DNA of 64,000 nucleotides from Vicinamibacterales bacterium (GCA_965223015.1 CBDCVL010000004.1:310687-374686); one strand, 5' to 3'; positions 367 to 51,556 are shown, counted from the stretch's first letter. Notes: generated from the sequence alone by a model not told the origin. Translations and numbers: made by a program.

Positions 367-432
367 ACCACCGCGTGACTGGCCGGATGGGCGTAACGGC
401 TTTTGCGTGAGGGTGACCCGCGACGGTGAACC

Positions 433-6648: not shown

Positions 6649-6671
6649 GACTGTGGCGACACTTCACGACA

Positions 6672-7496: not shown

Positions 7497-7502
7497 GAGT
7501 GA

Positions 7503-11910: not shown

Positions 11911-11931
11911 CGGGATCAAGAGCGACCTATC

Positions 11932-12933: not shown

Positions 12934-12940
12934 GATTCTG

Positions 12941-13465: not shown

Positions 13466-13473
13466 GTATCATC

Positions 13474-13782: not shown

Positions 13783-13845
13783 CGGCTGAAGGACTCACAC
13801 GACAATCGACGACGCTCGACCCACGACTGACGACTAACGACCTTT

Positions 13846-33091: not shown

Positions 33092-33874
33092 GTGGTGCGG
33101 GAGATGGTCGCGCGGGGCCTCAGTGAGCGCAGGGCCCTGGCCGTGGGGCGGATGAGCGCGTCGGCCTTCCGGTACGTGCCAAGGCCCGATGGTAATACGG
33201 TCGTCCGGGATCGGATCGTTGACCTGGCGCAGCGACATCGACGCTATGGGGCCGGGATGATCTATCTGAAGCTGCGGCAGGCCGGCCACGTCATCAATCA
33301 CAAACGGGTCGATCGCCTGTACACGGAGGCCCGGCTCCAGTTGAAGCGCCGTCGACGCAAGAAGATCCCGATAGCCGACCGCCAGCCCCTGGTGCGCCCC
33401 GAGCGTCGCAACCAGGTCTGGTCCGCGGACTTCGTCTTCGATCGCACGGCGGATGGGCGGGTTATGAAGTGCCTGACCATTGTCGACGACGCCACCCATG
33501 AGGCTGTGGCGATTGTCCCGGCGCGGGCCTTCGGGGGACTGCCGGTCACCCGCGTCCTGGACCGCCTGGCGATCACCCGCAGACTTCCGCAGATTCTCCG
33601 CACGGACAACGGGAAGGAGTTCTGCGGGCGCGCGATGCTCACATGGGCGCACACGCAGGGGCTGACCCTGCGTCTCATTGAACCCGGCAAACCGAACCAG
33701 AACGCCTACATCGAGTCCTTCAACGGGCGCTTCCGCGACGAATACCTGAACGAACACTGGTTTACGACCCTGGCCCACGCCCAGGCCCTGATCGAAGCGT
33801 GGCGCTGTGAATACAACGAGGAGCGACCGAAGAAGGGTTTGGGCGGGCTGACGCCCGCCCTCTACGCGAAGTAA
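33092..33874 (+). CDS. IS3/IS407-like transposase OrfB (rve integrase core)
   Basis: 260 aa. WSADFVFDRTADGR..KCLTIVDDATHE, LRTDNGKEF, IEPGKPNQNAYIESFNGRFRDEYLN. Confidence 0.85.
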   Translation: MVREMVARGLSERRALAVGRMSASAFRYVPRPDGNTVVRDRIVDLAQRHRRYGAGMIYLKLRQAGHVINHKRVDRLYTEARLQLKRRRRKKIPIADRQPLVRPERRNQVWSADFVFDRTADGRVMKCLTIVDDATHEAVAIVPARAFGGLPVTRVLDRLAITRRLPQILRTDNGKEFCGRAMLTWAHTQGLTLRLIEPGKPNQNAYIESFNGRFRDEYLNEHWFTTLAHAQALIEAWRCEYNEERPKKGLGGLTPALYAK

Positions 33875-34567: not shown

Positions 34568-35341
34568 TCAGGACGCCGGGGTGGTCGCGGGCTGGCGGGC
34601 TTTCTTGCTGTGTTCGAGGCGATAGCTCTCGCCGTTCAGCTCCAGGATGTGGACGTGGTGGGTCAGTCGATCGAGCAGCGCGCCGGTCAGCCGTTCGGAC
34701 CCGAAGATCTCGGTCCATTCGTTGAAGGGCAGATTCGAGGTCACGAGCGTCGACGCTTGCTCGTAGCGCTGGGAGAAGATCTCGAAGAGCAGCTCGGCGC
34801 CGGTCTTCGACAACGGCACATAGCCGAGCTCGTCGACGATCAACAGATCCTGCTTGGCGAGCTGCTTCTGAAAACGCAGCAGGCGCTTGTCATCCCGCGC
34901 CTCGAGCAGCTCGTTCACCAGTGCGGCGGCGGTGGTGAAGCGCACCCGATAGCCTTTCTGACAGGCGGCCAGCCCCAACGCGAGCGCGAGATGCGTCTTG
35001 CCCGTGCCGGAGTTGCCCAACGCCAACACGTTCTCTCGCCGGGCGAGATACTCCGAGCGGGCCAGCTCCAGCACCAGGCGTTTGTTCACCGACGGGATCG
35101 CGCGGAACTCGAAGGTCTCGAGACTCTTCAAGACCGGGAACCTGGCGGCCTTGATCCGCCGCTCGACGGCGCGTTGTTCGCGATCGAGCAACTCCAGCTC
35201 GCAGAGGCGGAACAGGTAGCGCGAACAGTCCAGCCCTTCCTGGGCGCATTGCCGCGCCACGTTGTCGTATTCGCGCAAGAAGGTGGGCAGGCGCAGGGCC
35301 TTGAGATGGGCGTCCAGCAACAGGGTCGGTTTGGCCATCAC
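34568..35341 (-). CDS. istB: IS21-family helper ATPase IstB
   Basis: 257 aa. LGNSGTGKTHLALALG (Walker A), LLIVDELGY (Walker B), LLDRLTHH. Confidence 0.9.
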   Translation of the reverse strand: MMAKPTLLLDAHLKALRLPTFLREYDNVARQCAQEGLDCSRYLFRLCELELLDREQRAVERRIKAARFPVLKSLETFEFRAIPSVNKRLVLELARSEYLARRENVLALGNSGTGKTHLALALGLAACQKGYRVRFTTAAALVNELLEARDDKRLLRFQKQLAKQDLLIVDELGYVPLSKTGAELLFEIFSQRYEQASTLVTSNLPFNEWTEIFGSERLTGALLDRLTHHVHILELNGESYRLEHSKKARQPATTPAS

Positions 35342-36410
35342 TCAGCTCCCGCCCCCAGCAGCGTCAGGTAATCGGCTGCGGCGGTCGTCGTCACGCGGGG
35401 GACCGGCAGGTGCGGATACTGCGCCAGATCGAGGTGGGGCGGCCGGTGGTCGAGGCGACACCGCACGAGGTGCTTGACGGCATCGAACCCGATCGCCCCC
35501 AGACGCACGGCGTCCCGGATGGCGCCGCGGACGTGGTCGAGCTGAAAGTCTTCGAGCCGCCGCAACACCTGCACGTACTCGCGCGTGCCCGGCTTGCCCA
35601 GCCGCGCCTCCAACAGGCGCCGCAGCCGGAGAAACTCGTCCGGCAGCTGCCACCCGGCCAGCGGCGCCGCGTGATCGAGCGCCCCCGTCTTGCGCTCCAC
35701 CAAGGCCAAGTCGTGCCGCGGCTCGAAGATCAACACTTCCCGCTCGTAGCTGCGACGATGGCGGGCGATCTCGTCACTGCCGCACACGATCACGACGTCG
35801 TCCACGGAGCCTTTCACTAGCACCTCCCGGTGGCCGTAGGCGGTCGGCACCGAGTAGTCGTTGCGGCGGTCGCGCACCAGCGACAACGACGTGACCCGCG
35901 TCGTCCGCGTGTCGCAGGCGTCATACGGGACCGGCGGTAACGGCAACAGCGCCTCGCGGTCGCGGGCGAAGCGCTCCCCGATCGTCTCCGTGTGCCGCCG
36001 TAACCGGCGCCCGCGACGTTCGCCGCACTTGTGCGCGAAGTCGGCGTTCAACGCGTCCCAACTGGCGAACCGGGGGATCGGCACGAAGAAGTTGCGGCGG
36101 ACGTACCCGACCAGCCCTTCCACCTTGCCGTTGTCGTTGCCCTTCCCCGGCCGCCCGAAGCGATCGGCGAATAAATAGTGCGATTGGCGTTCGCAGAAGA
36201 CCTGCGTCCGCTGGCGCGTGCCGTCCCCGAGCATCCGCGCCACCGCCAGCGTCGTGTTGTCGTAGACGATGCGCCGCGGCACGCCACCGAAGTAGCCGAA
36301 CGCGGCGGTGTGCCCGTCGCAGAACGCCTCCGACGTCTCGGCCGGAAACGCCTGCACAAACCCGTCGTCGCTGTGCGGGAGATCGACGACCTGGGCCTGA
36401 CCCGCTTCCG
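35338..36410 (-). pseudogene. istA: IS21-family transposase IstA, N-terminally truncated
   Basis: It starts within the catalytic region (..AGQAQVVDLPHSDDGFVQAFPAETSEAFCDGHTAAFGYFGGVPRRIVYDN). The HTH and the first DDE residues are missing. The apparent GTG start lies inside the IS3 end. Confidence 0.85.
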
Positions 36411-36445
36411 TGGACACCTAACCCTTGTGGTAGAAGGAGTCCACG

Positions 36446-37652: not shown

Positions 37653-37776
37653 CTAGCTCAAATCGAAGCGTCCTGATCTGACTTTCGTCGGTCCCGATTT
37701 CCGAGACCTTCGACACGCCGTTGTTAAGCAGCTCAAGGGTTGTGGGATCGCGGAAATAGAGTTCGCGGTTCGTCAT
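37653..37776 (-). pseudogene. brxC: first 41 codons of a brxC/pglY-like BREX ATPase gene, truncated by IS3 copy 3
   Basis: The ATG overlaps the brxB stop (ATGA). MTNRELYFRDPTTLELLNNGVSKVSEIGTDESQIRTLRFEL resembles the BrxC N-terminus (..R.I.GVVK..Q.D.....EL.EYV). The reading frame then enters IS sequence. Confidence 0.5.
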
Positions 37777-38330
37777 GGGTTGATGAAGCTCTCGGTGGAG
37801 GTGATGGGAACGGCCATGTAGTTGAACCCGTCGCGCGCGTCCATGAAGCGATACACGTTGCCCGCATATTCACCCGGGAAAAGAACGAGAAGGCGACCGC
37901 GAATGCTGTCTTCAACGCGGTCGATCAAGCTGGACACTCGCATGAAGTCGAACAGCGAAGCCAGACCGGTGACGGTCACGACACTGGTGGCATTGGCCTC
38001 CTCACGGGAGCACGCCTGACGCACGCGTTCAGCCGCAAGGTCTTCGAGTTCGCTATTGGCGCTGAAATGCTCCGGTTCAGAAAAGATGGCCTCGCGGTAT
38101 TCGTGGGCCGTAATCCATTCCGGGAGGAGCCGCGTGAGATCAACGCTGGCCCATCCGTGGTGTGCCTCTAGCGTGATCGCTTCAAACTGCGGGAGGCGCG
38201 CCCTCACTCGCCGTTCTTCAGCCGGCGGATACACCGCGAACCAGATCCGCTGCTTGCCAGACATATTGGTAGACCAGGGAAGGCGCACTTGGCGGGAGTA
38301 GTTAGCAAGAAGACGGTCAATGGCGCTCAT
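37773..38330 (-). CDS. brxB: BREX protein BrxB (DUF1788)
   Basis: 185 aa. LPW......QRIWFAVY.P.EERRVRARL..FE, and a C-terminal IRGRLLVLFPGEYAGNVYRFMDARDGFNYMAVPIT that matches the BrxB signature as I remember it. Confidence 0.85.
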   Translation of the reverse strand: MSAIDRLLANYSRQVRLPWSTNMSGKQRIWFAVYPPAEERRVRARLPQFEAITLEAHHGWASVDLTRLLPEWITAHEYREAIFSEPEHFSANSELEDLAAERVRQACSREEANATSVVTVTGLASLFDFMRVSSLIDRVEDSIRGRLLVLFPGEYAGNVYRFMDARDGFNYMAVPITSTESFINP

Positions 38331-38769
38331 GGTAGGGGCTCCTGCAGTCCGGTGAAGAGCGGAAAACTCAATTCAACAACCTCGCCGATAGCGCGCAGAT
38401 TGAGCAGCCCGGCTCGATGGGCGTCGAAGCCCATGGTCTTGGCGCGCTCGAGGTTCAGATCGAGGAGACGGCACCAGGGATTGGAAAAGACCGCGGCGCC
38501 GTGATAACCGGCGATGTTCCCCAGGAAGAACGCCATGGTGGCTGCCACGGCTGTAGACTTGATCCGCTGACGGGTCTTTCTCGCACGACCGGCGAGGTGC
38601 CCGGTCTGGGTCCACGAGGACGCCGCATTGCGCGCGATCTTGTTGCGGCTGAGTTCCGAATACTGATTCCCAAACGCGACTTCCAGCGCCTGAGCCAAAT
38701 CGGGTGTCTCAACCCGGTCGCCCTCAGCTAGATCCATGATGGCCGGGGTCGTGGCTCGCAGGAGAGGAT
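38327..38769 (-). pseudogene. brxA: BREX protein BrxA (DUF1819), C-terminal part, separated from its N-terminal part by IS3 copy 2
   Basis: The native sequence resumes at ..PLLRATTPAIMDLAEGDRVETPDLAQALE... Its stop overlaps the brxB start. Confidence 0.65.
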
Positions 38770-39021
38770 GGAGGTGGACCCCATTCCTCGGACCAAGAAC
38801 GGGCGTTGCTAAGGTGGAGCCTGCTGGGTCTGTTCTCGTCGTAGTCGTGTCCTGCAACCAGGGTTGCAGGCCTGGGCCTGCAACCCGTAACTGCCTTACG
38901 CCGGTGCGCGGAGACGGGGGCCAGGTCGCCGCAGGCGCCCCGCGCAGCGGGGTCGGAGCGGAGCGGAGAACCTGGAGGCGGTCGAGCACACCGGCACCCG
39001 ACGCCCGGTCGGCTAGAACGC

Positions 39022-39864
39022 TCATGCTGCCTCGGGCCTCGGCATCGAATCGTAGAACGCGGCTGGCGTCTGATAGCCCAACTTCGCATGCGGCCGCGCG
39101 TCATTGTAGAAGCGGAAGTAGCGCCCGATCCCCTCGCGCGCCTCGGTCAGCGAATCATAGGGGTGCAGGTAGATCTCCTCATACTTCAGCGACCGCCAGA
39201 GCCGCTCCACGAAGATGTTGTCGAGGTAGCGGCCCTTGCCGTCCATGCTGATCTTGATCCCCCGGTCGCGCAGAACGCGGGTGAAGTCCCCCGCCGTGAA
39301 CTGCGAGCCCTGGTCGGTGTTGAAGATGGTCGGCCGGCCGAAGTGTGCGAGGGCGTCCCTCAACGCCTCGATGCAGAAGCCCGTGTCCAGCGTGTTGGAC
39401 AGCCGCCACGCCAGGACCCGGCGGGAGTACCAGTCGATGATCGCCACCAGGTAGGCGAAGCCGCGCGCCATCGGGATGTAGGTGATATCCGTGGCCCAGA
39501 CCTGGTTCGGCCGTGCGATCGTGAGCCCCCGCAGCAGATACGGGTAGACGGGGTGGTCCGGCGCCGGCGTGCTCGTTGTGGGTTGTGGCGCCGTGCTCTC
39601 CAGCCCCATCAACCGCATCAGGCGTTGGACGCGCTTCCGATTGATCACGGGGCCCTCGGCCTTCAACGTCTGCGTGATCATCCGGCTGCCGAAGAAGGGA
39701 TGCTGCAGATGCAGCTCGTCGATCCGGCGCATCAACGCCAGCTCCTCCGCGTCCGGGACCACCGGCTCGTAGTACACGCTCGACCGGGTCACGGCCAGCA
39801 GCGCGCATTGCCGCCGCATCGACAGCGTGCCGTTCGGTGCCATCAGGACTCGTCGCTGCGTCAT
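39022..39864 (-). CDS. IS3-family transposase OrfB (rve integrase core)
   Basis: From the ATG at 39864 (ATGA overlap with the orfA stop). WATDITYIPMARGFAYLVAIIDWYSRRVLAW, NTDQGSQFTA, WRSLKYEEIY. The 526-aa track ORF is a read-through chimera. Confidence 0.85.
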   Translation of the reverse strand: MTQRRVLMAPNGTLSMRRQCALLAVTRSSVYYEPVVPDAEELALMRRIDELHLQHPFFGSRMITQTLKAEGPVINRKRVQRLMRLMGLESTAPQPTTSTPAPDHPVYPYLLRGLTIARPNQVWATDITYIPMARGFAYLVAIIDWYSRRVLAWRLSNTLDTGFCIEALRDALAHFGRPTIFNTDQGSQFTAGDFTRVLRDRGIKISMDGKGRYLDNIFVERLWRSLKYEEIYLHPYDSLTEAREGIGRYFRFYNDARPHAKLGYQTPAAFYDSMPRPEAA

Positions 39865-40145
39865 CGGGAGCGCCCGAGCCCGTTGGATAAAAAATCCCGC
39901 TCCACCGTCAGCTCGCCGATCTTCTTGAGTAGGACATCTTCCCGCTCCGACGCCCCGCCATCGCCATGGTCCGTCTCGAACGACTGCGCCGCGTTGTCGA
40001 GCAGCTGCCGTTTCCACTTGTAGACTACGTTGGCGTGGACCTTGTAGCGGCGCGCAATCTCGGCCACCGACTCCTGGTCTCGCAGTGCCGCCAACGCCAC
40101 CTTCGCCTTGAACGCCGGGTTGTGCTTCGTACGGGTCTTCTTCAT
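39861..40145 (-). CDS. IS3-family transposase OrfA
   Basis: 94 aa. FKAKVALAALRDQESVAEIARRYKVHANVVYKWKRQ. Paralogous to the copy 1 OrfA. Confidence 0.85.
   Translation of the reverse strand: MKKTRTKHNPAFKAKVALAALRDQESVAEIARRYKVHANVVYKWKRQLLDNAAQSFETDHGDGGASEREDVLLKKIGELTVERDFLSNGLGRSR
39888..39894 (-). promoter_or_regulatory. putative -1 frameshift heptamer T_TTT_TTA
   Basis: GAT TTT TTA in the orfA zero frame, at the same ERDFL position as in copy 1. Confidence 0.45.
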
Positions 40146-40226
40146 GGTATCGGCTCCTCCCTCTTCTGTTGGGAGCAGGCTCGAATACCACCTTAGCTGC
40201 TGGTCCGAAAATCGGGGTCCACTTCA

Positions 40227-40602
40227 GATCGCGCGCCCAGGCTACCTGCACTGCAAGCAGCGGCAGGCTCCCGGCACCCATCCCGTGGAGCTTCCGCAGG
40301 AGGCCAAAAATAGGGTTGGCTTCATTGAGCGCATATAGCTCGCGCAAGTGGCGGAGCGATTTCTGCCTGGTGCTGTCCGTGGTCTTGCCAAGAATGTTCC
40401 GCTGAAGAATGGCCGCGCGGTAACCAACAGCGCCGGAACCGAACGGAACGATGGCCAATGTTGCGCTGAGTTCCTGCAGCATCATGGTTCGGCTAATGTG
40501 TGGGCCGCCTGAGGAGAATTTGAGACCGAATGTCTCGAGAGCGGGCGAAGCGGCAGGAAAGCCAAGTGAGGAAAGGTCGCTCACCGCGGTTATCTCATTC
40601 AT
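40227..40602 (-). pseudogene. brxA: BrxA (DUF1819), N-terminal part
   Basis: ..ISRTMMLQELSATLAIVP......AILQRNILGKTTDSTRQKSLRHLRELYAL....LLAVQVAWARD. This matches my memory of the DUF1819 pattern (..N.L.K.S..T.KR....I..RL..L). Confidence 0.65.
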
Positions 40603-40990: not shown

Positions 40991-42362
40991 AGGGTGACAC
41001 CCTGTGGGTGAATTACAGCACGAGGCGTTTCAGTTCACGTTCAATGGGTTTCTGAAGGTCGCATTCCAGGGGTCGCGCATCACCTCCGACGCCGGTCTCC
41101 TTCTGGTGCGCGAGTTGGATGAACGCCTGGGGCTGGCGACACTCATCGCCGAGCACCTGAGCGAGTCCCGACAGGGCTTGAACACCCAGTTCAGCCTGGC
41201 GGATCTCCTGCGACAGTCGGTCTACAGCCGGCTCGCGGGCTACGAAGACCTCAACGATGCGGTGCGCGTGTCGGCGGACCCAACATTTCGGCTCATCGGG
41301 TCGCCAACGCTCTGGGACCGCGGTGCGGCGCTGACCTCGACGCTGCATTGGTTCGAGACTGAGCTGCTGACCCGAGCGGAGAATCTCGTTGGGCTGATGG
41401 CCGTGAACCGGGAGGTGCTTGCACAGGCTGAGATGCCAACGCGCGCCGGCCGGATCGTGCTCGACATGGATTCGAGTGAGAGCCCGGTCCATGGGACGCA
41501 GGAAGGGAGCGCGTACAACGGGCACTTTGAATCAGTCTGTTACCACCCGCTGTTTCTGTTCAACGAGCACGGCGACTGCGTGGCCGCCGCGCTGCGGCCC
41601 GGCAATGTGCATAGCGCCGACGATTGGGACGATCTGCTCGTGCCGGAAATTGACCGGCAGCAGGCGGCGGGTACGCGCGTGGCGTTCCGCGCTGACGCCG
41701 CGTTTGCCAAGCCCGAGATCTACGACGCGCTCGAGACGCGCGACGTGGATTATGTCATCCGCATGCCGGCGAACAAGAGTGTGGAGCTGGAAATCGAAGA
41801 CCTCCTCTTTCGTCCGCCGGGACGGCCGAGCCGCAAGCCCTTGGTGCGCTACAAGAGCTTCCGGTATCAGGCGAAGAGCTGGACCACGCCCAGACGGATT
41901 ATCGCCAAGGTGGAGCACCACCGAGGTGAGCTGTTCCCCCGCGTCGGCTTCATCGTGACTAACATGGTCCTCCCGAGTCGTTCGGTCGTACGGTTCTACA
42001 ACAAGCGCGGCACGGCGGAGCAATGGATCAAGGAAGGCAAGCAGGCCACCCACTGGACGCGGCTGTCGTGCCATCGTTTCCGGGCGAACGAAGTGCGCCT
42101 GCAACTGAGTGTCCTGGCCTACAACCTGGGCAACCTCTGGCGCAGATTGGTCCTGCCGCCGCGGGTCAAGCGCTGGTCGCTCACGAGTCTCCAGCAGCGG
42201 CTGGTGAAAATCGGAGGCCGGCTGGTGAAGCATGCCAGGTACTACTGGCTCCTGCTGGCAGAAGGGCATCTGACCCGTCGGCTGTTCGGCGACATGCTGC
42301 GGAGGATCTGGGCACTGCCAGTGCCGGGAGGATAGCGGGCGATCGCTTACCGAGGAACTGTA
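40991..42362 (+). mobile_element. IS1380-family insertion sequence (boundaries approximate)
   Basis: Defined by the single long transposase gene. I could not identify convincing terminal repeats. It is bounded by the IS5 fragment on the left and the IS3-like terminal repeat on the right. Confidence 0.5.
41004..42335 (+). CDS. IS1380-family DDE transposase
   Basis: 443 aa. ..FQGSRITSDAGLLLVRELDERLGL, VLDMDSSESPVHG.QEGSAYNGHF, FRADAAFA, RFYNKRGTAEQWIKEGK. Confidence 0.88.
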   Translation: MGELQHEAFQFTFNGFLKVAFQGSRITSDAGLLLVRELDERLGLATLIAEHLSESRQGLNTQFSLADLLRQSVYSRLAGYEDLNDAVRVSADPTFRLIGSPTLWDRGAALTSTLHWFETELLTRAENLVGLMAVNREVLAQAEMPTRAGRIVLDMDSSESPVHGTQEGSAYNGHFESVCYHPLFLFNEHGDCVAAALRPGNVHSADDWDDLLVPEIDRQQAAGTRVAFRADAAFAKPEIYDALETRDVDYVIRMPANKSVELEIEDLLFRPPGRPSRKPLVRYKSFRYQAKSWTTPRRIIAKVEHHRGELFPRVGFIVTNMVLPSRSVVRFYNKRGTAEQWIKEGKQATHWTRLSCHRFRANEVRLQLSVLAYNLGNLWRRLVLPPRVKRWSLTSLQQRLVKIGGRLVKHARYYWLLLAEGHLTRRLFGDMLRRIWALPVPGG

Positions 42363-42404: not shown

Positions 42405-43298
42405 CTATGCTGCCGCGTCCAGCCCGACGAAGTCACGTCGCACCTGAGCGGGGCTTTGATAGTGGTACTTCTCTAGCATCCACTGCTCGTTGTACGTCCG
42501 CTTAAACTCGAGTAAGGCCAGGCGGAGCTCCTCGATGGTGTCGAAACTCCGCACCCACAACAAATTCTCCTTCAGCGTGCGGATGAAGCGTTCCGCGACG
42601 CCGTTGCCTTCGGGCTCCCGCACGAAACTCGGCGAGCTCTCGATGCCGAAGAACGCCACCGCCTGTTGAAAGTCGTCAGCCAGATAGTTCGACCCGTGGT
42701 CGTGCCGAAGACGCAGCCCGCGGGCGACGCCCTCGCCAATCGTGCCGAAGCGGGCGCGGACGCCCTGGCGGATCGGCTCCAGGGCCTCAAATCGGGTCCC
42801 GCGCTTGGCCGCATGCAGGCCGATGCACTCGGTCGTGCAGTGATCGACGGCCACGAAGACGAAGGCCGCGCCCTCGCCCACGGTCACTGTGGCCGTCATG
42901 TCCGTGCCCCACATCACATCGGGGGCCGCGGTGGTGATCGTGCCGTCGTGCGCCTTCGGGCCGTGCGCGTGGCCCACGCGGTGCGGGGCCTGGAGGTCGT
43001 GCTCCCGCATCAACCGACGCACCCGTTCCAGCGAGGTGCGGATCCCCGCGACCCGGAGCTTCGCCCAGGCTTTCCGGTACCCTGCGCCGTGAAAGGGCGA
43101 GGCTTCGAGCAGTCGGCGGATGTGGCCGGCCAGCACGTCGTCCGGGGCGGCGCCCACCGGCCCACGCCGCCGACACGGCGCCCGGGACGGTGTCGCCTGC
43201 CGCCGCGCATACACGCTAGAGCGGGCGCGGTGCCACACGCGGCAGACCCGCTGCACGCCATACGCCCGCCGCGTGGAGATCGAGTGGGCGTCCTTCAT
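42405..43298 (-). CDS. transposase OrfB (rve integrase core)
   Basis: 297 aa. WGTDMTATVT..GAAFVFVAVDHCTTECIG, HDHGSNYLADDF, NGVAERFIRTLKENLLW. Confidence 0.85.
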   Translation of the reverse strand: MKDAHSISTRRAYGVQRVCRVWHRARSSVYARRQATPSRAPCRRRGPVGAAPDDVLAGHIRRLLEASPFHGAGYRKAWAKLRVAGIRTSLERVRRLMREHDLQAPHRVGHAHGPKAHDGTITTAAPDVMWGTDMTATVTVGEGAAFVFVAVDHCTTECIGLHAAKRGTRFEALEPIRQGVRARFGTIGEGVARGLRLRHDHGSNYLADDFQQAVAFFGIESSPSFVREPEGNGVAERFIRTLKENLLWVRSFDTIEELRLALLEFKRTYNEQWMLEKYHYQSPAQVRRDFVGLDAAA

Positions 43299-43708
43299 CG
43301 CCTCGACCTCCGTCGGGCCAAAGGGCCGCCCACCTCCAACTGGTCCACCTTCGCGTAGAGCAGTTCGTTCTCCATCAGTCGTTCACCGATCTTGGCTTGC
43401 AGCCGACGATTCGCCTCGTCCCAGGCGTCCGGCGCCCGGCTCTTCAGGCTGGCCTGGCCCGCGGCCAGAAACTGATCCCGCCACTGCGCGGCCCGCGCCG
43501 CCGTGATCCCCAGCTCCCGCGACACGGACTCGAGATCCTCTCCGCGCAGCAGACGCAGCACCGTCTCGCGCTTGCGCCGGGCTGACAACCGTCCCCCACG
43601 GCCGCGCCCGGCGGCGTCTCCGGTCGCCCTTCGGGCTTCCTCCGCCGCCGCCGATTCTTGATCTGGTTTCCCCATCTCGACACGCCTCCTGCGAGTACTC
43701 TCTCGCAA
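43295..43708 (-). CDS. transposase OrfA (HTH)
   Basis: The probable start is MGKPDQ.. at 43675. LESVSRELGITAARAAQWRDQFL, then a coiled coil. 4-nt overlap with orfB. Confidence 0.75.
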   Translation of the reverse strand: MRESTRRRRVEMGKPDQESAAAEEARRATGDAAGRGRGGRLSARRKRETVLRLLRGEDLESVSRELGITAARAAQWRDQFLAAGQASLKSRAPDAWDEANRRLQAKIGERLMENELLYAKVDQLEVGGPLARRRSRR

Positions 43709-43935: not shown

Positions 43936-44121
43936 AAATCCCGGCTGAGAGGAGTGATGGAGGCGCACAGAGTTACCATCTACCCTGCTGAATGGTGGCA
44001 CTTCGATTACGAGACCTGGGATGAATATCCGATCCTGAATCTGACCCTCGAAGAACTGGTGGGCGGCTCGCCGCAAGGCGAAGCAGGTGCAATAGGGAAG
44101 GTTCGGCACGCTATTTGCTAA
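43936..44121 (+). pseudogene. ddpX: C-terminal remnant of a D-alanyl-D-alanine dipeptidase (VanX/DdpX family)
   Basis: My own translation: ..LRGVMEAHRVTIYPAEWWHFDYETWDEYPILNLTLEEL..-TAA (44119-44121). EWWHF near the C-terminus is the family hallmark. The upstream sequence is out of frame. Confidence 0.55.
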
Positions 44122-44254: not shown

Positions 44255-44458
44255 GTGACTGCACATGAGGAGCCTCGCTTCAGCGAACTGGTCACGCGGG
44301 CGTTTTCGGCTGAGCAAGAAGAGGCCCAAACGCTGTGGGTGCCGCTGGCGCAGCAATTCGATAGGAAGGGCCCGGAGGTCGCCAAGGAATATCTTGCGGC
44401 GCAGAGGCAGCAGCTGGCTGACCAGGTGAAAAAGCTGCTTGATCAGGTCACAGAGTGA
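44255..44458 (+). CDS. small predicted all-helical acidic/basic protein (67 aa), first gene of the three-gene cassette
   Basis: GTG start with AGGGAG 6 nt upstream. The stop lies 4 nt before the ATG of the ATPase. I recognise no motif. Confidence 0.5.
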   Translation: MTAHEEPRFSELVTRAFSAEQEEAQTLWVPLAQQFDRKGPEVAKEYLAAQRQQLADQVKKLLDQVTE

Positions 44459-44462
44459 ATCG

Positions 44463-46553
44463 ATGGCTGACGGCTTCCGTATCGGGCGGATTTCGGTCGA
44501 AGGGTTCAAGGGCTTTACAAAGGCCCAGGAAATCGACCTAAGCAACCGGCACGTATTCTTGATCGGGCCGAACGGGAACGGGAAGTCAAGTATCATCGAG
44601 GCCATTCGATGGGGGCTCTTCGGTTCCACGGGCCGGCCGAACGACATCGTCCGGAATGCGGGCTATGAGGGCGATTGTCGTGTTGAGATAGGTTTGGCGC
44701 GGGACGGGAAGGAATGGCACCTCCGTCGTATCCTAACGCCTGGCGGCGGCGGCGGTAGCAGCCGTGCGGAACTGTTCGACGAAGGCGGCAAGGAGCATCC
44801 TATGCGCGATGTTTTGCCTCAAATGGACTCGCTCAATGCTGGCGAGGGAACGCACATTATCTTTGCTCCTCAGTCGGCACCCCTCCGTCGTCAACCCGAG
44901 GATTTGACCCCATTCGAGCGGACCGTGTTCGGTCACTTGGGCTTAACGCACGCGCGTGTGATGTTGAGTCACCTGGATACCTTTGTGCATGAGCAGGAAG
45001 ACGAGGAGACTTCTCTGGACGGACTCGTCAGTGATGCGTACAAGGAGGTGAATAGTCGAATCGCGGAACTTGAACGGCAACGCGGGCTGATACTCTCGTC
45101 ACCACCATGGGACGGCGATCTCCAACCATCGATCGCGGATACCGAGAGTAAGGCGAAGGAATTGATCGGGAAGATCGAGACGTCTGAATCGGGAAAGGAC
45201 TTCGGGCAGTTCTCGTTAGGGGCGCTTGTTGGTGAGGCGGAAAGGGCTCTAGAGGAGAGAGTTGGCTTGGATCAAACGCCGCTGAGCGAAGAGCTTGAGC
45301 AGCTGGACGCCAAGCTGGTTCGTTTGGAAGGGATTCAGAGCGCTTGGGAAAACATCCTCCGTAAAAGAGAAGATCTGAGGAAAGCGGATGAACATCGACA
45401 GAAGATCCTGGACGGCGTGTCACTGGACGAACTGCAGGAACGAGTAGAACGGCGGCGCCAAGCTGCCGAAACTCTGGATCTGAGACGCCGGCTCGGGGAG
45501 ACAGCTGGCGAACTGTTGGATCGCACAGAAGGCGAAGACTTGCTTCCCTGTCCCATTTGCGAAACAGGACGGAAGCGGGATGAATTCAATCGTCTGATAC
45601 TGGCTATGGTACACGCGGAAGGCGAAAAGGATTCATCAGGCCTGCACGTGACGGAAAACCAGTTGAACGAGGCGAAACAAATCGAAGGCCTCATTCAGGC
45701 ATTGAACCACGAAGTCGAGGAGTGCAAAAGCGATCTAGATACGACGGTCGCTGCTGAAGATGATGTCGAGTTGACCGAAGCCGTCAGAGGAGGGCGAGTC
45801 GCGGACCACATTAAGGCCATGAAGAAGCATAAGACGTCCGTCGTGGCGCAAATCGACGGTTTTGAAGATTGGCATGGCGGTGTCCAGGTGGAGCTCAAGA
45901 ACCTGCGCGAAGAGGCTAGGTATCAGGAATTGCAGCTGGATCTGAGCAATTTAAGAGCTGTCAATGCAGATATGGAACGGGTTCGGCGGGCGTTCGAGCG
46001 ATTTGTGCAGTTTGGCGAGTCGGTGAGGGACATCCGTGACTCGGTCAAGTCGACTTTGATCGACGAACTGCGCAGGAAAGTACCTAGCGTCGCGGAAGAG
46101 TTGACGAGTGTATTCAGGGCACTGACGAGACATCCACATTTTGATCGGTTGGTCATTGACGAGGAGAAACTGCCAGGCCTCGTCCTGACAGTGGCAAGCA
46201 GCAGCGACTCGTTTGGAACGCCGCGTCCACCGGGCGTGTTGAATGGACAGGCTCAGAGCGCATTAGAATTGGTGCCGTACTTCGCCTTGGGTCAGGCGGA
46301 TGAGGCTCCTACCGAGGTCTACCTCGTGCTACTGGATGATCCAACACGAGCCTTCGATAGGGAACACATCGGGATTCTGATCGAGCGATTGGCGGATCTG
46401 GGGAAGCGTGTGCAACTTGTGGTCGCCACGCAGGAAATGGAAGCGTTCCGTGACTTGTTGCCAAGGAGCTTCGAGCGCGAAAGCTATGTGGTTGTCGAAC
46501 CGAAGAACTGGTCGTATGCAGATGGGCCGGAGCTGGTTACGGAGTACGACTAG
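44463..46553 (+). CDS. Rad50/SbcC/SMC-like ABC-type ATPase with a central CxxC hook-like motif
   Basis: N-terminal FRIGRISVEGFKGFT....L....VFLIGPNGNGKSSIIEAIRWGLFG (RecF/RecN/SMC head, Walker A). A charged, probably coiled-coil segment of about 450 aa contains LLPCPICETGRKRDE. The C-terminus has LNGQAQSALEL (degenerate signature), VYLVLLDDPTRAFD (Walker B/D-loop) and VQLVVATQE. Confidence 0.85.
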   Translation: MADGFRIGRISVEGFKGFTKAQEIDLSNRHVFLIGPNGNGKSSIIEAIRWGLFGSTGRPNDIVRNAGYEGDCRVEIGLARDGKEWHLRRILTPGGGGGSSRAELFDEGGKEHPMRDVLPQMDSLNAGEGTHIIFAPQSAPLRRQPEDLTPFERTVFGHLGLTHARVMLSHLDTFVHEQEDEETSLDGLVSDAYKEVNSRIAELERQRGLILSSPPWDGDLQPSIADTESKAKELIGKIETSESGKDFGQFSLGALVGEAERALEERVGLDQTPLSEELEQLDAKLVRLEGIQSAWENILRKREDLRKADEHRQKILDGVSLDELQERVERRRQAAETLDLRRRLGETAGELLDRTEGEDLLPCPICETGRKRDEFNRLILAMVHAEGEKDSSGLHVTENQLNEAKQIEGLIQALNHEVEECKSDLDTTVAAEDDVELTEAVRGGRVADHIKAMKKHKTSVVAQIDGFEDWHGGVQVELKNLREEARYQELQLDLSNLRAVNADMERVRRAFERFVQFGESVRDIRDSVKSTLIDELRRKVPSVAEELTSVFRALTRHPHFDRLVIDEEKLPGLVLTVASSSDSFGTPRPPGVLNGQAQSALELVPYFALGQADEAPTEVYLVLLDDPTRAFDREHIGILIERLADLGKRVQLVVATQEMEAFRDLLPRSFERESYVVVEPKNWSYADGPELVTEYD

Positions 46554-46584
46554 TCCAGAGCACGCAGTTGCCGTCGATTGCTTA

Positions 46585-47067
46585 ATGCGCTTGCGGTCAG
46601 AGGCGAGTACGGTGGAGTTTGGTTACAAGATTCAGGCACTTGCAGCACACGTGCTCTTGGGACTGAATCACCGCGTTGTGGAGGTGAACCACAAGGGGCA
46701 CCCAGATATCGTCGGCGTTAAGGACGGTCAAGAGTTTCGTTTCGAGGTCGAAGCGGAGGTTATCGGCAGCAAGAGACGGATGCTGACCTCGTCAGACTTC
46801 GAGGGACTGATAGGCGCGGGGGTTGTCGGGTATTTTGCGTTGGCGGTGAGTTTTCCGAGACCGTACTGGGTGTTGGTACCTGCTCGGCGTCTGATGCGAC
46901 GGGATTCGCCAGCGGGCGCTGCTCTCCTGGAAGCGCTGAGTGACAAGGCATTTTCTTCGGACTGGACGCGCGAGTACCTGTCGCTGATCGGTCGGTCGTG
47001 TCGCGAGGTGCTGGACCGCTCGTTCGATCAGCTTGTCCGACGAGCGACGGCGGGAAGGGCCCTCTGA
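46585..47067 (+). CDS. small Hjc/restriction-endonuclease-like (PD-(D/E)xK-fold?) protein
   Basis: STVEFGYKIQALAAHVLLGLNHRVVEVNHKGHPDIVGVKDGQEFRFEVEAEV parallels the E...G..V.R....G.PDIIA.K.G....IEVK core of Hjc/Mrr-type nucleases, but with E in place of the K. An alternative upstream ATG at about 46516 would overlap the ATPase gene. Confidence 0.5.
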   Translation: MRLRSEASTVEFGYKIQALAAHVLLGLNHRVVEVNHKGHPDIVGVKDGQEFRFEVEAEVIGSKRRMLTSSDFEGLIGAGVVGYFALAVSFPRPYWVLVPARRLMRRDSPAGAALLEALSDKAFSSDWTREYLSLIGRSCREVLDRSFDQLVRRATAGRAL

Positions 47068-47490
47068 GCACACGACGATGCGACGGATCCACCGTGGGTC
47101 GGCATAAGATTCGCTTGAAACGCACCCTGAAACCCTCGTTCAGTTTCGAAGGAGCGCGGGCGGGCAACGCGACGCAACGCATCAATGATGTCTTCGACCA
47201 TTTCGGGGCCCTGAACGGACCCGAAGTCACTGCGCCTGTTTTTGTATCTAGACCTCAGTTCTTGGGCGGAACTGACGGATTCGGCGCATCAAGTTCTCGA
47301 AACAATTGAGGAATTCGACGAGAGTGATGGAACCGAACCCCTCCCCGCAGATCAGCGGAAACGGCGCGCTTACTGCCAGCCGTACTGCCAGCCGTTTCTG
47401 GTCTTGCCAGCCATTTTCTGACCCGTTGAGACCTGCCATGATCGTCAAATTCCTCAACAAATGCGTATTTACTGAGGTTTCTGGTCAGGC

Positions 47491-47538
47491 CTGATCGGCT
47501 TAGAAGGCCGATGCTCTATCCAACTGAGCTACGGGCGC
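47491..47538 (-). tRNA. truncated tRNA-Arg(TCT): acceptor 5' strand, D-arm and anticodon arm only
   Basis: The reverse complement reads GCGCCCG-TA-GCTC-AGTTGGATA-GAGC-A-TCGGC-CTTCTAA-GCCGA-TCAG. The following bases (GCCTGACCAGAAACCTC..) cannot form a T-arm or an acceptor 3' strand. Confidence 0.6.
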
Positions 47539-47705: not shown

Positions 47706-49877
47706 CTACTTCGCCAAGGGGTCGGGACGCACTTGGAAGTGAATGAGCTTGTTCTTCTGCCCCTTGCCTCCCTCGATGTGCCACATCACCTGGCCGGCGT
47801 AGGCTGACCAGAGCCCGCGACCCTTCCAGCCGGCGTCCGGGTCGTCGATGCGTCCATCCATCCCCTTCGGGTGGAACCCTATCGGATACGGCACCCGGAG
47901 CATCACCATCTGGCCGTCCGGCAAGGTGGCCTTCAGCGAATCCGAGTTGTTGCCGAGCGCGAACGGGACGTTCTCGCCGAGTCCGGCCGTATTGAACTGG
48001 TCCACGAAGGTGTAGTAGTTCGAGTCCGTACTGCCCGATCCCTCGACGCCCTTGAAGTTGGGTCCCGGCTGATCGTAGAAGGTCCAGCCCTCGGCGCAGT
48101 GCTGGCCGGTGGCCGTCGGGCCGTTGGTGACGGTGCACTTACTCCGGTCGAAGCTCGCCATGTAGCCGGCACCCGTGCCGGCCCAGAGGATGCCGTTCCT
48201 GTCGATGTCGATGCCGCGCGTACCCCAGACCTCGACCGGTGCCTCGGGGTTCATGTAGGGCAGCGCGTAGAGTTCGGTCAATGCGGTCTCCGGCGGGGTC
48301 TCTCCCGGCACCACGCGCATGATGGCGCCCGGCGCGGCCGCCGAGGTCACCACCCAGATCGAGCCGTCGGCTGGGTTCGGGATGATGCCGTAGTTCATCA
48401 AGGCAACCCGGGTGTCCTTGGCGGCGTCGGCCGGGTCGCCTGGCTCGACGTACGCGTCTTGGGTGCCGTTCCCGTTGGTGTCGAGGATGAACGGCATCCA
48501 GCCTTGCGAGGCCTGCACGTCCCCGGTCTCTTCCCACGTGCGGGTGTCGAAGTACCCAAGGTTCTGGCCGAGCGTGCTGAACCAGAGGACGTCATTCTGG
48601 TCGAACTGCACGTGGTGTGTTCGGTAGCACGTATCCAGCGCCGTCCACTCCTCCGTGGCGGGGTCGAACATCGAGAGCTGCCGGCCGCTGAAGGAAAGCG
48701 GATACTTGCTGGCGGACGGATGGCTCGAGCCCTCCTTGCACCAGTCGGGGTTTGCCGACGGGCGCACGTTGGAGGTGATCCAGACGCGGTCGCTGGTATC
48801 CATCATCAGGCTGTGCGCGCTGGTGCGGCTCGTGAACACCGCCTCCTCGCCCCACGCGGGCGACGGCTGCATGCTTCGCTGCGACCATGCGAAGTCCGGG
48901 GGGTTCTCCGCATCGAGGAACGGCGGCATCACCTGCACGGTCACGTGGGTCGTCGGGTCGAGTACGGGCATCGTGTCTGAGCTGTACTCTGTGCCACCGT
49001 AGATGGGCCCATAGCCGTTGAGGGTCGGGTTTCGCTTGTCGGTGCTGACGCTGTCGTGGACGAACTGGCGGCCATCCATTCCCCAGTCCCACATCGACAG
49101 GACGAGGTGACGCTCGACGCCTGAAGGCCGTGGAGGCTGTGGTGGAAGCTCGCCACCTGCGATCCGATCTGTCCAGTCGGCGAACATGTCGATGGCCCGC
49201 GCGCGTCCGAGACGGCCGAGGAGGCTGTCCATGGCCGCACCGCTCTGGCCCGAGAGCACCCGCCGTTCCCAGGCCTCCCGTGTGCTATCAAAGGTGCCCA
49301 TGTTCTGCGGCATCTCCCGCGTCGCTTTCGTCCCCATCTGATGGCAGACGACACAGCCGTTGAGTGTCAACTCGCCGAGGTAGTGTCCCTGGCTCTTCAT
49401 GCTCGACAGAATCAAATTTCCGGCCGGCCCGGTGCCGGGAAAATCGCTCGCCGGCGGAGGCTCGAGGAGAGAGTACCAATAGTAGGCCGGGTAGACCTCT
49501 GCGGCAGCCTCCGGGCTGGGAGCGACCATTGCCGTCAGATCGAGCGGGGTGCCTGGCGTGGCCACGACTGGCGACGAGTCCACCAGACCGTAGCCGCGCA
49601 CCCAGATGGAGTATGTGGCCTCGGGGAGGTCCGGCAGCACATACTGGCCCTCGTCATCGGTCACCACGATCTTGCGATAGCCGGTTGGGAGATCGCTGGT
49701 CTCCGCAATGACCCAGACACCGGCCTCCGGGCCGTTGGTGCTCGTCACGACGCCCCCGATGTCGTCGCTGTCAAGAGGCACGGCAGGCACATCCACCCCG
49801 CCGGTGCACGACGGCACGGCGAGGAGCGCGACAAAGCCGACCGCCAGCGCGGGCCACCCAGAACTCGCTCTTCTCAT
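47706..49877 (-). CDS. lipoprotein with a carboxypeptidase-regulatory-like domain, one CxxCH haem-binding motif and a large beta-rich C-terminal region
   Basis: The real start is the ATG at 49877 (MRRASSGWPALAVGFVALLAVPSC lipobox). GVWVIAETSDL.....VTDDEGQYVLPDLPEATYSIWVRGYG is CarboxypepD_reg-like. LNGCVVCHQMG is also present. Confidence 0.7.
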   Translation of the reverse strand: MRRASSGWPALAVGFVALLAVPSCTGGVDVPAVPLDSDDIGGVVTSTNGPEAGVWVIAETSDLPTGYRKIVVTDDEGQYVLPDLPEATYSIWVRGYGLVDSSPVVATPGTPLDLTAMVAPSPEAAAEVYPAYYWYSLLEPPPASDFPGTGPAGNLILSSMKSQGHYLGELTLNGCVVCHQMGTKATREMPQNMGTFDSTREAWERRVLSGQSGAAMDSLLGRLGRARAIDMFADWTDRIAGGELPPQPPRPSGVERHLVLSMWDWGMDGRQFVHDSVSTDKRNPTLNGYGPIYGGTEYSSDTMPVLDPTTHVTVQVMPPFLDAENPPDFAWSQRSMQPSPAWGEEAVFTSRTSAHSLMMDTSDRVWITSNVRPSANPDWCKEGSSHPSASKYPLSFSGRQLSMFDPATEEWTALDTCYRTHHVQFDQNDVLWFSTLGQNLGYFDTRTWEETGDVQASQGWMPFILDTNGNGTQDAYVEPGDPADAAKDTRVALMNYGIIPNPADGSIWVVTSAAAPGAIMRVVPGETPPETALTELYALPYMNPEAPVEVWGTRGIDIDRNGILWAGTGAGYMASFDRSKCTVTNGPTATGQHCAEGWTFYDQPGPNFKGVEGSGSTDSNYYTFVDQFNTAGLGENVPFALGNNSDSLKATLPDGQMVMLRVPYPIGFHPKGMDGRIDDPDAGWKGRGLWSAYAGQVMWHIEGGKGQKNKLIHFQVRPDPLAK

Positions 49878-50009
49878 GGTCTCCTTCTCGGAATTGAGCC
49901 CGGCGCCCCGCTGGCGTCGAACTCGAGCCGCTAGTCCAGTCGAGAGCGCCATCCTACACCCATCCCAACCGACCGGGTTGCGCTGAGCCGTCTTACCGAA
50001 AAGCGCACG

Positions 50010-50565
50010 CACTGGGGGTGGGCTTCCGATGGCCGCCTGTTGTTCGACACCTTTGAAGGCGACATTGGTGTGGTCACCGTCGACGGCGAACCGACAGTGG
50101 AGATACTGCTGGAGACGGAATTTCAAGAGGAAGCTCCGGCGCTGTCCCCAGATGGTCGGTGGCTGGCCTACCAGTCGGATGAATCCGGCCAGCCGGAAAT
50201 CTACGTCAAGCCGTTTCCGAATGTGGACGGCGGTCGGTGGCAAGTGTCGACGAATGGCGGCTACCGTCCGGTGTGGTCACCAGAGACGACGGTTGTTCTT
50301 TCCCCAACTGACCCCCTTGAGACTCATGGTGGCCAACGTTGAGACGGACCCGACCTTCGGCCGGGGTACACCGACAGAAACGTTCGACCTATCGGCGTAT
50401 GAGCTAACCGGGGGTGGCCGACGCTACGATGTCGCCCCAGACGGAGAGCGCTTCATCTTGCGGAAGGCTGGTGGGCAGGTGCTGGCGGACGGCGACACAT
50501 TTAGCGGTTTGATCTTCGTCCAGAACTGGTTCGAGGAACTCAAAGAGCGAGTGCCCATTCCGTAA
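50010..50565 (+). pseudogene. C-terminal fragment of a TolB-like beta-propeller (kinase-associated type), frameshifted
   Basis: Frame 1 (50040-): ..LSPDGRWLAYQSDESGQPEIYVKPFPNVDGGRWQVSTNGGYRPVWSP. After a shift near 50280-50290, frame 2 reads ..RRLFF.....MVANVETDPTF..G.P...F......RRYDVAPDGERFILRK........LIFVQNWFEELKERVP-stop. No N-terminal part is present. Confidence 0.65.
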
Positions 50566-50752: not shown

Positions 50753-51556
50753 CTATTCGAGTAGTGCCAAGACTGAACCGGTCGACGCATTGGCCTGGGC
50801 CAGGGCGGCGATACCGCTCTGGTTCAGGATGCTGAACCGGGTGAGGTTGGCCGACTCCTCTGCGATGTTTGCGTCACGGATACGGCTCTCGGCCGCGCGG
50901 TTGTTCACCACCTGGTTCCGAACGAGGCTGATCGCGAAGTTGAGACGGTTCTGAATCGATCCGACGGTGCCCTGTTCGATTCCAAGGTTCGTGATCGCCG
51001 CTGTCACCGTGCTAACGGCGGTCTGCGCAGCCGCCTGGCTCGTCAGTACCCCACCGGCCAGTGTCAGACTCGTCGTGGTGACCGCCCCGATCGACCCGGA
51101 GATCACACCGTTCGCGCCGTTGTTGCTCACGAACACCGAGAAGCCAGACGCCGTGTCGAGATTCGCCACGGCTGACTCCCGCGTGATCTCGCCCAGGATG
51201 TCCTGGAACTCCGCGTTCAGTGTCGTCCGGGTGGCGTCGGTCGTGTGACCCGAAGCCGCCTGCGTCGCCAGGGTGCCAAGCCGGTCAATCAACGTCGAGA
51301 TGTTGTTCAGCGCTCCGTCCTTGATCTGGAGTGTGGACAGCCCGTCGTTGGCGTTCCGCATCCCCTGGTTGAGGATCGCGACGTCGCTGCGAAAGGCGTT
51401 CGCAATCGCGAGTCCAGCCGCATCATCACCCGAAGAGTTGATCCGCAGGCCGCTGGACACCCGCGTCAGGGCTTGTCGCAGCCCGATGTTGGTCACGTCC
51501 AGGTTGGCCTGGGCGTTGACCGAGGCGATATTGGTTACGACTGAAAACGATGCCAC
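50753..51556 (-). CDS. fliC: flagellin (short form, no hypervariable middle domain)
   Basis: 267 aa. GTG start with AAGGAGG 9 nt upstream. N-terminal SFSVVTNIASVNAQANL...RVSSGLRINSSGDDAAGLAIA and C-terminal ..IRDANIAEESANLTRFSILNQSGIAALAQAN. Confidence 0.9.
   Translation of the reverse strand: MASFSVVTNIASVNAQANLDVTNIGLRQALTRVSSGLRINSSGDDAAGLAIANAFRSDVAILNQGMRNANDGLSTLQIKDGALNNISTLIDRLGTLATQAASGHTTDATRTTLNAEFQDILGEITRESAVANLDTASGFSVFVSNNGANGVISGSIGAVTTTSLTLAGGVLTSQAAAQTAVSTVTAAITNLGIEQGTVGSIQNRLNFAISLVRNQVVNNRAAESRIRDANIAEESANLTRFSILNQSGIAALAQANASTGSVLALLE

Follow-up and report, generated by a model that had tools for sequence, protein, structure and literature searches.

A compact three-gene cassette at positions 44255-47067 of a 64,000-nucleotide stretch of DNA from a Vicinamibacterales bacterium (GCA_965223015.1 CBDCVL010000004.1:310687-374686; the whole stretch is hereafter called the window) is most likely an unrecognized, stripped-down relative of the Lamassu defense system. 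Its tightly packed, same-strand genes encode a 67-amino-acid (aa) protein, a structural maintenance of chromosomes (SMC)-like ATPase, and a protein with a nuclease fold. All three genes are under purifying selection and are co-inherited. By analogy with Lamassu and other ATP-binding cassette (ABC)-three-component (ABC-3C) systems, the cassette is probably a mobile defense module in which an SMC sensor would be paired with a nuclease effector.

Cassette structure and conservation

Reading of the open reading frames (ORFs) in the window recovered the three same-strand genes that an earlier note on this DNA had described. Gene 1 (44255..44458, +) encodes an acidic helical protein of 67 aa. It starts with GTG, and a GGGAG Shine-Dalgarno sequence lies 6 nt 5′ of this codon. 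Its stop is separated by 4 nt from the ATG of gene 2 (44463..46553, +), which encodes a 696-aa ABC ATPase of the Rad50/SbcC/LmuB (CxxC-SMC) type. Gene 3 (46516..47067, +) encodes a 183-aa protein with a PD-(D/E)xK (Hjc-like) nuclease fold and has an alternative shorter start at 46585. The shorter start had been assigned previously and is no longer favored. Comparison with homologs and modeling make the ATG at 46516 (or 46522) the most likely start, which would give a 38-nt overlap with gene 2. This choice is based on four points: homologs of gene 3 are mostly 173–186 aa in length, the conserved segment A..CL.RLRS lies 5′ of the Met at 46585, the AlphaFold2 (AF2) model of the 183-aa form confidently predicts a helix (residues 14-29) before this Met, and the start ATG of the 173-aa homologs is ACG in the window. 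A promoter and terminator scan gave nothing over shuffled expectation.

Homologs were collected by a genome scan with one genome per species, which gave 32 loci, and six further close relatives (L034-L039) were fetched by exact protein look-up. With tblastn, gene 1, gene 2, and gene 3 were found with order and spacing kept in about 30 of the 32 genome loci, and the trio is intact in all six close relatives. The earlier note had named a lack of co-occurrence in other genomes as a ground for refutation; the trio in fact recurs at about 36 loci besides that of the window, spread over more than 10 phyla. A gene 1 homolog lies immediately 5′ of the ATPase gene in 31 of the 32 genome loci and in every close relative. 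The small upstream ORF is present even in the most distant loci, those of Aerophobetes (L029) and Micrarchaeum (L030). Gene 2 has at least 384 homolog clusters of nearly constant length (~695 aa), gene 3 has 287 of 150-190 aa, and a word search for gene 1 gave 16. All-against-all clustering of flanking ORFs revealed no conserved fourth gene, the commonest neighbor family being present at 5 of the 32 loci. A conserved fourth gene, such as an upstream LmuA lost to an insertion sequence (IS), was rejected on the same count.

Pairwise-identity matrices of gene 2 are strongly correlated with those of gene 3 (r = 0.95) and gene 1 (r = 0.89), and none of 2000 permutations attained either correlation; by this measure the three proteins co-evolve. 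Against three relatives, the ratio of nonsynonymous to synonymous substitution rates (dN/dS) of gene 1 is 0.15-0.51, gene 2 has 0.30-0.37, and gene 3 has 0.21. Conserved linkage, matrix correlation, and dN/dS thus identify the genes as real, selected, and co-inherited. Pseudogenes or chance ORFs were ruled out by conservation and dN/dS.

Hosts of the cassette include Pseudomonadales, Alpha-, Gamma-, and 'delta'-proteobacteria, Binatia, Rhodothermaceae, Dehalococcoidia, Caldilineaceae, Latescibacterota, Terriglobia, Aerophobetes, and a DPANN archaeon. The ATPases of a Binatia and a Latescibacteria host share 62% identity across phyla, more than the 32% found between some Dehalococcoidia. In 29 of 30 loci the cassette is lower in G+C content than the adjoining DNA, with a mean difference of 8 points. 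The cassette is horizontally mobile, and its tree shows transfer across phyla. In the window, G+C content is 54.8-57.8% across 44-47 kb and 62-67% in the flanks, in line with the value of about 55% estimated before from a short sample of the ATPase gene. The whole cassette has 56.9% G+C and the remaining window 62.8%.

Several copies are decaying in place. In L001 (8001-10076), the ATPase gene has an in-frame stop after codon 203. In L002 (10296-14902), gene 3 is split by a 4.6-kb insert, and in L008 (10091-10931) an insertion of ~0.8 kb lies between genes 2 and 3. The ATPase of L028 is truncated at its 5′ end, and in L031 the cassette is reduced to a stub that retains just gene 1 and the N-terminus of the ATPase. 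Frequent local decay of this kind is typical of defense genes. No homologs were found in phage records or IMG/VR viral contigs. A search of 72,556 plasmid records also found no homolog and returned just two P-loop matches, covering 7-9% of the query, in Klebsiella plasmids.

Predicted proteins

The gene 2 protein was compared with HMM libraries, predicted and solved structures, and its own homologs. Pfam assigns SMC_N and AAA_23. NCBIfam models for Rad50, SbcC, SMC, and RecF match the N-terminal P-loop only, far under their cutoffs. The best HMM is the PADLOC LmuB model PDLC03859 (E = 4e-26, 90 bits), which aligns residues 196-684 with profile positions 219-609 of 611 and is the sole model aligning beyond the P-loop along most of the protein. 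Ranks 2 and 3 in PADLOC are two more LmuB models. The AF2 model has a predicted local distance difference test (pLDDT) score of 82 and places an N-terminal head at residues ~1-160, a C-terminal head at 560-696, and an antiparallel coiled coil at 162-555 that is interrupted at 213-223 and 239-251. A β-hairpin at residues 361-370 between the two arms bears the motif CPIC. The model agrees with the earlier description of an SMC-like head split by a long coiled coil and adds the hairpin hook. The insert had been put at about 450 aa, and it measures ~400 aa in the model (helices 149-555).

Foldseek against the PDB placed Rad50 (7zr1) first for the gene 2 model (1.7e-16), followed by Salmonella LmuB (9hqu_A, 8e-14). 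Further LmuB, SMC, MukB, and JetC chains ranked lower. A gene 2 profile searched against the PDB matched archaeal Rad50 heads at E of about 1e-8 and, weakly, the Rad50 hook fragment 1l8d (E = 0.15). An hhalign comparison with E. coli SbcC aligned 59 columns, all at the P-loop.

Motif conservation was assessed in a 72-sequence alignment and by comparison with the most distant loci. The motifs reported before (Walker A, CxxC, signature, Walker B, and VVATQE) are all present and conserved in the family. Walker A, GPNGNGKSS (44565..44591, +), spans residues 35-43, with G35, N37, G40, K41, and S43 invariant throughout. A PPW motif at the break of the N-terminal coiled-coil arm (45102..45110, +; residues 214-216) has an invariant W216 and nearly invariant P214 and P215. 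It is kept in archaeal and Aerophobetes homologs, coincides with the AF2 helix break at 213-223, and is a possible elbow or folding point of the coiled coil. The CPxC hook, CPICETGRKRDE (45549..45560, +), covers residues 363-374, and C363, P364, and C366 are invariant, distant loci included. The degenerate ABC signature LNGQAQS (46239..46259, +; residues 593-599) has N594, G595, and Q596 invariant. VLNGQ is kept in distant loci and reads VLNEQ in the archaeon. Walker B and the D-loop, LVLLDDPTRAFD (46323..46358, +), cover residues 621-632, of which L621-T628, A630, F631, and D632 are invariant. The catalytic Glu of Walker B is replaced by Asp (hhhhDD, LVLLDD), and none of the distant loci has lost the DD. 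At the H-loop position, VVATQE (46419..46436, +; residues 653-658) has Gln in place of His. Q657 is nearly invariant in the clade of the window, and distant clades keep His (ASHE, ATHE, or VTHE). These motifs show a nucleotide-binding site that is predicted to be intact and catalytic residues that are altered.

Residues 124-148 of the gene 2 protein (44832-44906), GEGTHIIFAPQSAPLRRQPEDL, include several invariant positions near the Q-loop. They are among the most conserved stretches of the protein, yet have pLDDT < 50 in the AF2 model. This segment may become ordered only on binding of a partner or DNA.

The gene 3 protein was modeled with high confidence (pLDDT 88; predicted template modeling score 0.85). 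In the AF2 model, a canonical α-βββ-α-β core is preceded by an additional helix and followed by a C-terminal extension of three helices (residues 135-178, roughly 45 aa). All of the ~50 Foldseek matches listed are PD-(D/E)xK enzymes, the leading one being Hjc (2eo0, 2wcw; probability up to 1.0, E about 1e-2, target-normalized template modeling score 0.53-0.62). Other matches are RecU, MspJI, NhoI, the SPARDA nuclease, and I-Ssp6803I. Gene 3 shares the PD-(D/E)xK core with RecU and with type II/IV restriction enzymes. By sequence, no match to gene 3 was found in Pfam, NCBIfam, PADLOC, or the PDB.

Residues G36, Q40, D64, E77, E79, D94, W118, S147, and T151 of gene 3 are invariant in the wider set of 29 sequences, and H45 is additionally invariant in a 62-sequence set. 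Q40 and H45 lie on helix α1, D64 just before β2, and E77-x-E79 on β3. By invariance, D64 (46705-46707, +) and E77-x-E79 (46744-46752, +) are the catalytic candidates. The Hjc/Mrr-like nuclease core with a Lys-to-Glu change that had been aligned by eye is thus seen again in the AF2 fold, the Hjc matches of Foldseek, and the ExE of all members. The model has the fold and topology of the PD-(D/E)xK superfamily, and the predicted nuclease site would be an ExE variant. ExE variants can be active, as in BamHI (D94/E111/E113). With Hjc, an archaeal Holliday-junction resolvase, gene 3 shares the α-βββ-α-β core, the Asp before β2, and the acidic motif on β3. It differs from Hjc in having D…ExE instead of D…ExK, an extra N-terminal helix, and the three-helix C-terminal extension; it has no detectable sequence similarity to Hjc and is always encoded alongside an SMC-like ATPase.

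Members of the gene 1 family are 65-75 aa in length with isoelectric points (pI) of 4.4-5.7, and the window copy has a pI of 4.9. L27 and W28 are invariant in the alignment, R37 and G39 are nearly so, and a Pro after G39 is usual, not universal. No match was found in Pfam, NCBIfam, PADLOC (30 family members), or the PDB, where a gene 1 profile returned just designed helical bundles and GCN4 at E ≥ 0.02, that is, generic helical hairpins. Gene 1 is proposed to be an adaptor or regulator in an LmuC-like position. An identity of gene 1 with the Rad50-binding domain of SbcD/Mre11 gained no support from sequence, with an hhalign probability of 0.2% against E. coli SbcD.

Comparison with known systems

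LmuB has a zinc hook and a variant Walker B (10.1101/2025.03.14.643221). Long-type LmuB proteins carry hhhhDD and a single CxxC, and short types carry hhhhD[Q/S/T/E] and 0-2 CxxC (PMC12663957). The LmuC gene immediately precedes that of LmuB, an arrangement like that of the SbcD C-terminal domain and SbcC (PMC12663957). The order of the Lamassu operon is LmuA-LmuC-LmuB (10.1101/2025.03.14.643221). Lamassu/ABC-3C, to which DdmABC belongs, protects against phages or plasmids in a way that requires the ATPase, the effector, and LmuC. In LmuA, an N-terminal effector domain is joined to a C-terminal one that oligomerizes and docks on LmuB/LmuC.

Gene 2 carries the long-LmuB signature of hhhhDD and a single CPxC, archaeal and Aerophobetes members included, within an SMC-like ATPase that has a zinc hook and a shortened coiled coil. 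LmuB is both its best HMM match and among its top Foldseek matches. The nearest paradigm named in the earlier note, ABC-3C/Lamassu, therefore holds on the LmuB match of the ATPase. Gene 1 stands directly upstream of the ATPase gene, as does LmuC. Gene 3 combines a nuclease fold with a C-terminal helical extension, and PDDEXK and Mrr effectors are known in Lamassu. The defense-island and mobile context is also held in common. The hook had been counted as a mismatch to Lamassu and is not one, as a CxxC zinc hook is normal in LmuB. The mismatch in gene order and sizes stands in part: the order differs and the partners match no model, whereas a small gene before the ATPase gene fits LmuC-LmuB. With the hhhhDD/CxxC signature and the LmuC-like gene placement, the cassette is closer to Lamassu than was first held.

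Several observations weigh against placing the cassette within Lamassu, or against a defense role. The order is small gene, ATPase, and nuclease in every locus, not LmuA-LmuC-LmuB, and LmuC and LmuA models match neither gene 1 nor gene 3. LmuC contacts DNA through basic residues, whereas the gene 1 protein is acidic. With 90 bits, gene 2 scores lower against LmuB than a true family member would, and its sequence profile did not detect the solved short-type LmuB chains even at E ≤ 10. A gene 3 profile searched against 1.84 billion representative proteins gave ~110 clusters, none of them LmuA-sized, and the canonical Lys is Glu (E79) in every member. At loci from GTDB genomes, the nearest two neighbors on each side are mostly metabolic or housekeeping genes, and by a by-eye estimate from aggregated output ~8% of 114 such neighbors have defense-type matches (methylases, MADS, and a reverse transcriptase). 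Association with defense and mobile genes, which the earlier note had proposed to check, is clear in close relatives and moderate overall.

The gene 3 clusters found in that search are stand-alone proteins of ≤191 aa (full-length ~170-190 aa), barring one spurious repeat protein. The gene 3 family is rare, never fused, and without a sequence bridge to LmuA. A link of gene 3 to LmuA or to a fusion protein was sought in the 1.84 billion-protein and PDB profile searches and rejected, as neither gave one. Typical LmuA and LmuC are, by estimate, well over 183 aa and 67 aa in length, respectively. At 696 aa, gene 2 is longer than short LmuB proteins (about 600) and shorter than long ones (about 800), and its clade has Gln at the H-loop. 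The cassette has LmuB-type features and lacks the Lamassu operon order, and it is therefore set apart from existing Lamassu subtypes. PADLOC recognizes gene 2 alone. As PADLOC has no models for genes 1 or 3, callers of this type would presumably not report the trio as a named system. The cassette is not described in the papers on BREX diversity, embedded defense, and modularity networks that were consulted, a comparison that left out the ABC-3C classification of Krishnan et al. 2020.

Rad50-Mre11/SbcCD resembles the cassette in the head, coiled-coil, and zinc-hook architecture of its ATPase, and Rad50 is the best PDB match of gene 2 by sequence and structure. Both also encode a partner immediately 5′ of the ATPase gene. 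Unlike SbcCD, the cassette has no Mre11/SbcD phosphoesterase gene in or beside it and has a PD-(D/E)xK nuclease fold instead. Gene 2 has DD in Walker B and Gln in the H-loop, not the hhhhDE and His of Rad50/SbcC, and its coiled coil is much shorter. The cassette is mobile and patchy in distribution rather than a core gene, and gene 1 is unlike SbcD.

Wadjet (JetABCD) also pairs an SMC-family ATPase with a nuclease against foreign DNA, and JetC is among the structural matches of gene 2. Wadjet contains a hinge-type MukB-like SMC, kleisin/KITE subunits, and a Toprim nuclease, whereas the cassette has a zinc hook and no kleisin/KITE. The JetC HMM match of gene 2 is weak and N-terminal (1.3e-5).

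Proposed function and alternatives

The folds, motifs, and linkage of the three genes are shown by the analysis; the mechanism follows by analogy with solved Lamassu complexes. The gene 2 protein would carry ATP-binding heads and dimerize through its CPxC zinc hook. Its weakened hydrolysis residues (Walker B Glu→Asp, H-loop His→Gln) would make it a slow switch, not a motor, and the conserved breaks in the coiled coil, including the invariant PPW, would allow folding. The acidic, translationally coupled gene 1 protein and the C-terminal helices of gene 3 may dock on the ATPase and keep the nuclease inactive. The heads would encounter abnormal phage or plasmid DNA, such as free ends or replication or recombination intermediates. 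ATP-dependent head engagement would then free or reposition the gene 3 protein. The latter would become an active D…ExE nuclease, oligomeric and probably dimeric like Hjc, and would cut DNA and stop the invader or the infected cell.

If the cassette serves in defense, Lamassu/Rad50-derived immunity gains a form whose partners match no current PADLOC, Pfam, or NCBIfam model. The family would also gain a different operon order, with 67-aa and 183-aa partners estimated to be well below the usual sizes of LmuC and LmuA. Such a minimal set would suit the study of how an SMC-like sensor gates a nuclease, and it would inform the evolution of Lamassu from SbcCD-type repair machines. The family resides almost wholly in uncultured lineages (Dehalococcoidia, Binatia, Latescibacterota, and others), in which defense repertoires are poorly charted. 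If the defense reading is wrong, the cassette remains a conserved, mobile SMC-nuclease module.

A more tentative proposal, to which about one chance in four is given, is that the cassette is not a degenerate Lamassu and represents an independent, minimal lineage of zinc-hook SMC immunity from Rad50/SbcC-like ancestors. A hydrolysis-impaired Rad50-like clamp and an acidic 67-aa cofactor would then directly control the ExE nuclease of junction-resolvase type. What such a system would sense are replication intermediates of invaders that are branched or contain ends. With about 950 aa in all, no smaller SMC-nuclease immune system would be known, and it would be present in more than 10 phyla including DPANN archaea.

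It is rather unlikely that the cassette is a tethered-nuclease machine of the SbcCD/Mre11-Rad50 type, in which the gene 3 protein would stay at the heads and cut clamped DNA only, thereby destroying invading or aberrant DNA directly, with no effector release and no cell killing. The ATPase is nearest to Rad50 heads by sequence, and Rad50 is its top Foldseek match. Clamped substrates would be ends, hairpins, and four-way junctions, and the nearest structural relatives of gene 3 are junction-resolving enzymes. Predicted long-Lamassu complexes have their partners around the heads, as SbcCD does, and the tiny gene 3 protein, with its extension of roughly 45 aa, leaves little space for an LmuA-like oligomerization domain. 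However, the Glu→Asp and His→Gln changes speak against the hydrolysis-driven processing that nuclease activation in SbcCD/Mre11-Rad50 requires. Alignment with E. coli SbcC is confined to the P-loop, and gene 1 lacks similarity to SbcD.

Addiction-like stabilization of islands or plasmids, in which gene 3 would encode a toxin checked by the ATPase and gene 1 and loss of the cassette would kill the cell, is improbable. The cassette is a compact, mobile, low-G+C unit, its setting includes IS elements, integrases, a relaxase, and a possible ParA plasmid, and many antitoxins are, like one of its components, small and acidic. Simple addiction would nevertheless have no need of a 696-aa zinc-hook SMC-like ATPase whose DNA-sensor architecture is conserved, a strong addiction module would resist the in-place decay seen in L001, L002, L028, and L031, and the plasmid records contain no homolog.

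A housekeeping recombination-repair set for the host chromosome, composed of a Rad50-like protein, a Holliday-junction resolvase, and an accessory factor, is slightly less probable still: the Rad50-like and Hjc-like folds and the metabolic neighbors at many GTDB loci would fit it, but the family is rare and patchily distributed (~110 gene 3 clusters among 1.84 billion representatives), the tree indicates horizontal transfer, G+C content is below that of the host in 29 of 30 loci, flanks vary and contain no conserved repair neighbors, defense or mobile-element genes adjoin the cassette in all six close relatives, and some copies are pseudogenized. The preferred reading remains that of a Lamassu-like mobile defense module.

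Genomic context

The surroundings of the close relatives differ from one another. In the closest relative (L034, 77% identity), the cassette lies between a type I-C CRISPR-Cas operon and a pair encoding a ResIII helicase and an N6_N4 methylase, with a relaxase nearby. These flanking genes lie at 1-6334 and 11247-15206, and the operon encodes Cas3, Cas5d, Csd1, Cas7, and Cas4. These surroundings suggest a mobilizable defense island. L035 has a tyrosine integrase directly upstream. L036 and L038 have Upx-like genes upstream (2093-5803 and 3915-7577, respectively), which match PF28173 and encode 1220-1236 aa. The contig of L038 is 62.6 kb in length, has a name ending in '_c', and carries a ParA-like gene; it may be a circular plasmid. 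L037 has an MmeI-like enzyme ~7.7 kb upstream, and L039 has HsdM and many IS elements. In L019, from the genome scan, the cassette directly follows pglZ-brxL.

The window itself holds the island that the earlier note had outlined: rich in IS elements, with a BREX remnant about 4 kb and a broken tRNA gene about 0.4 kb from the cassette. Pfam identified IS genes at 33092-33874, 35338-36417, 39022-40602, 41004-42335, 42405-43708, and 57022-58299. Two IS elements lie directly upstream of the cassette, a DDE_Tnp_1_4 transposase gene (41004-42335, +) and an IS3-family orfA/orfB (42405-43708, -). The BREX remnant (37773..40602, -) lies outside the cassette, 3.6 kb from it at its near end, and was identified using PADLOC and the Pfam BrxB and rve families. 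It consists of an IS-split brxA and an intact brxB. PADLOC matched BrxB at 7.7e-63 and the two halves of BrxA at 9.5e-38 and 2.6e-28. The ORF at 39022-40602 joins BrxA positions 5-122 to an rve integrase domain, an IS3-type transposase interrupting brxA, and the ORF at 38327-39025 covers BrxA positions 111-250. No brxC, pglX, or pglZ match follows brxA-brxB in the window, so this BREX system is dead.

Of a tRNA-Arg(TCT) gene (47486-47538, -), just the 53 nt at the 5′ end are left, 0.42 kb downstream of the cassette. The fragment was detected using Rfam RF00005 (29.4 bits, cutoff 29) and was not called by ARAGORN. It retains the acceptor, D-arm, and anticodon arm, and the absent 3′ half would face the cassette. 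It is likely an old integration site, and the half gene suggests an old tRNA-targeted integration followed by rearrangement. A search for attachment-site repeats around the cassette gave just short, chance-level repeats.

A short ORF (43954-44121, +) ending in '…YPAEWWHFDYETW…' lies between the IS3 element and the cassette and has no Pfam match. Its end presumably resembles the C-terminus of a VanX-type D-Ala-D-Ala dipeptidase, and the ORF is probably a gene fragment left between the two. Genes farther away were read from the ORF list. Downstream of the island are a large secreted-looking CarboxypepD_reg protein (47706-50243, -) and a flagellin gene (50753-51556, -). Upstream in the window are heme-biosynthesis-like and NADH-dehydrogenase-like genes, also by this reading. 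The island appears to be embedded in the core chromosome.

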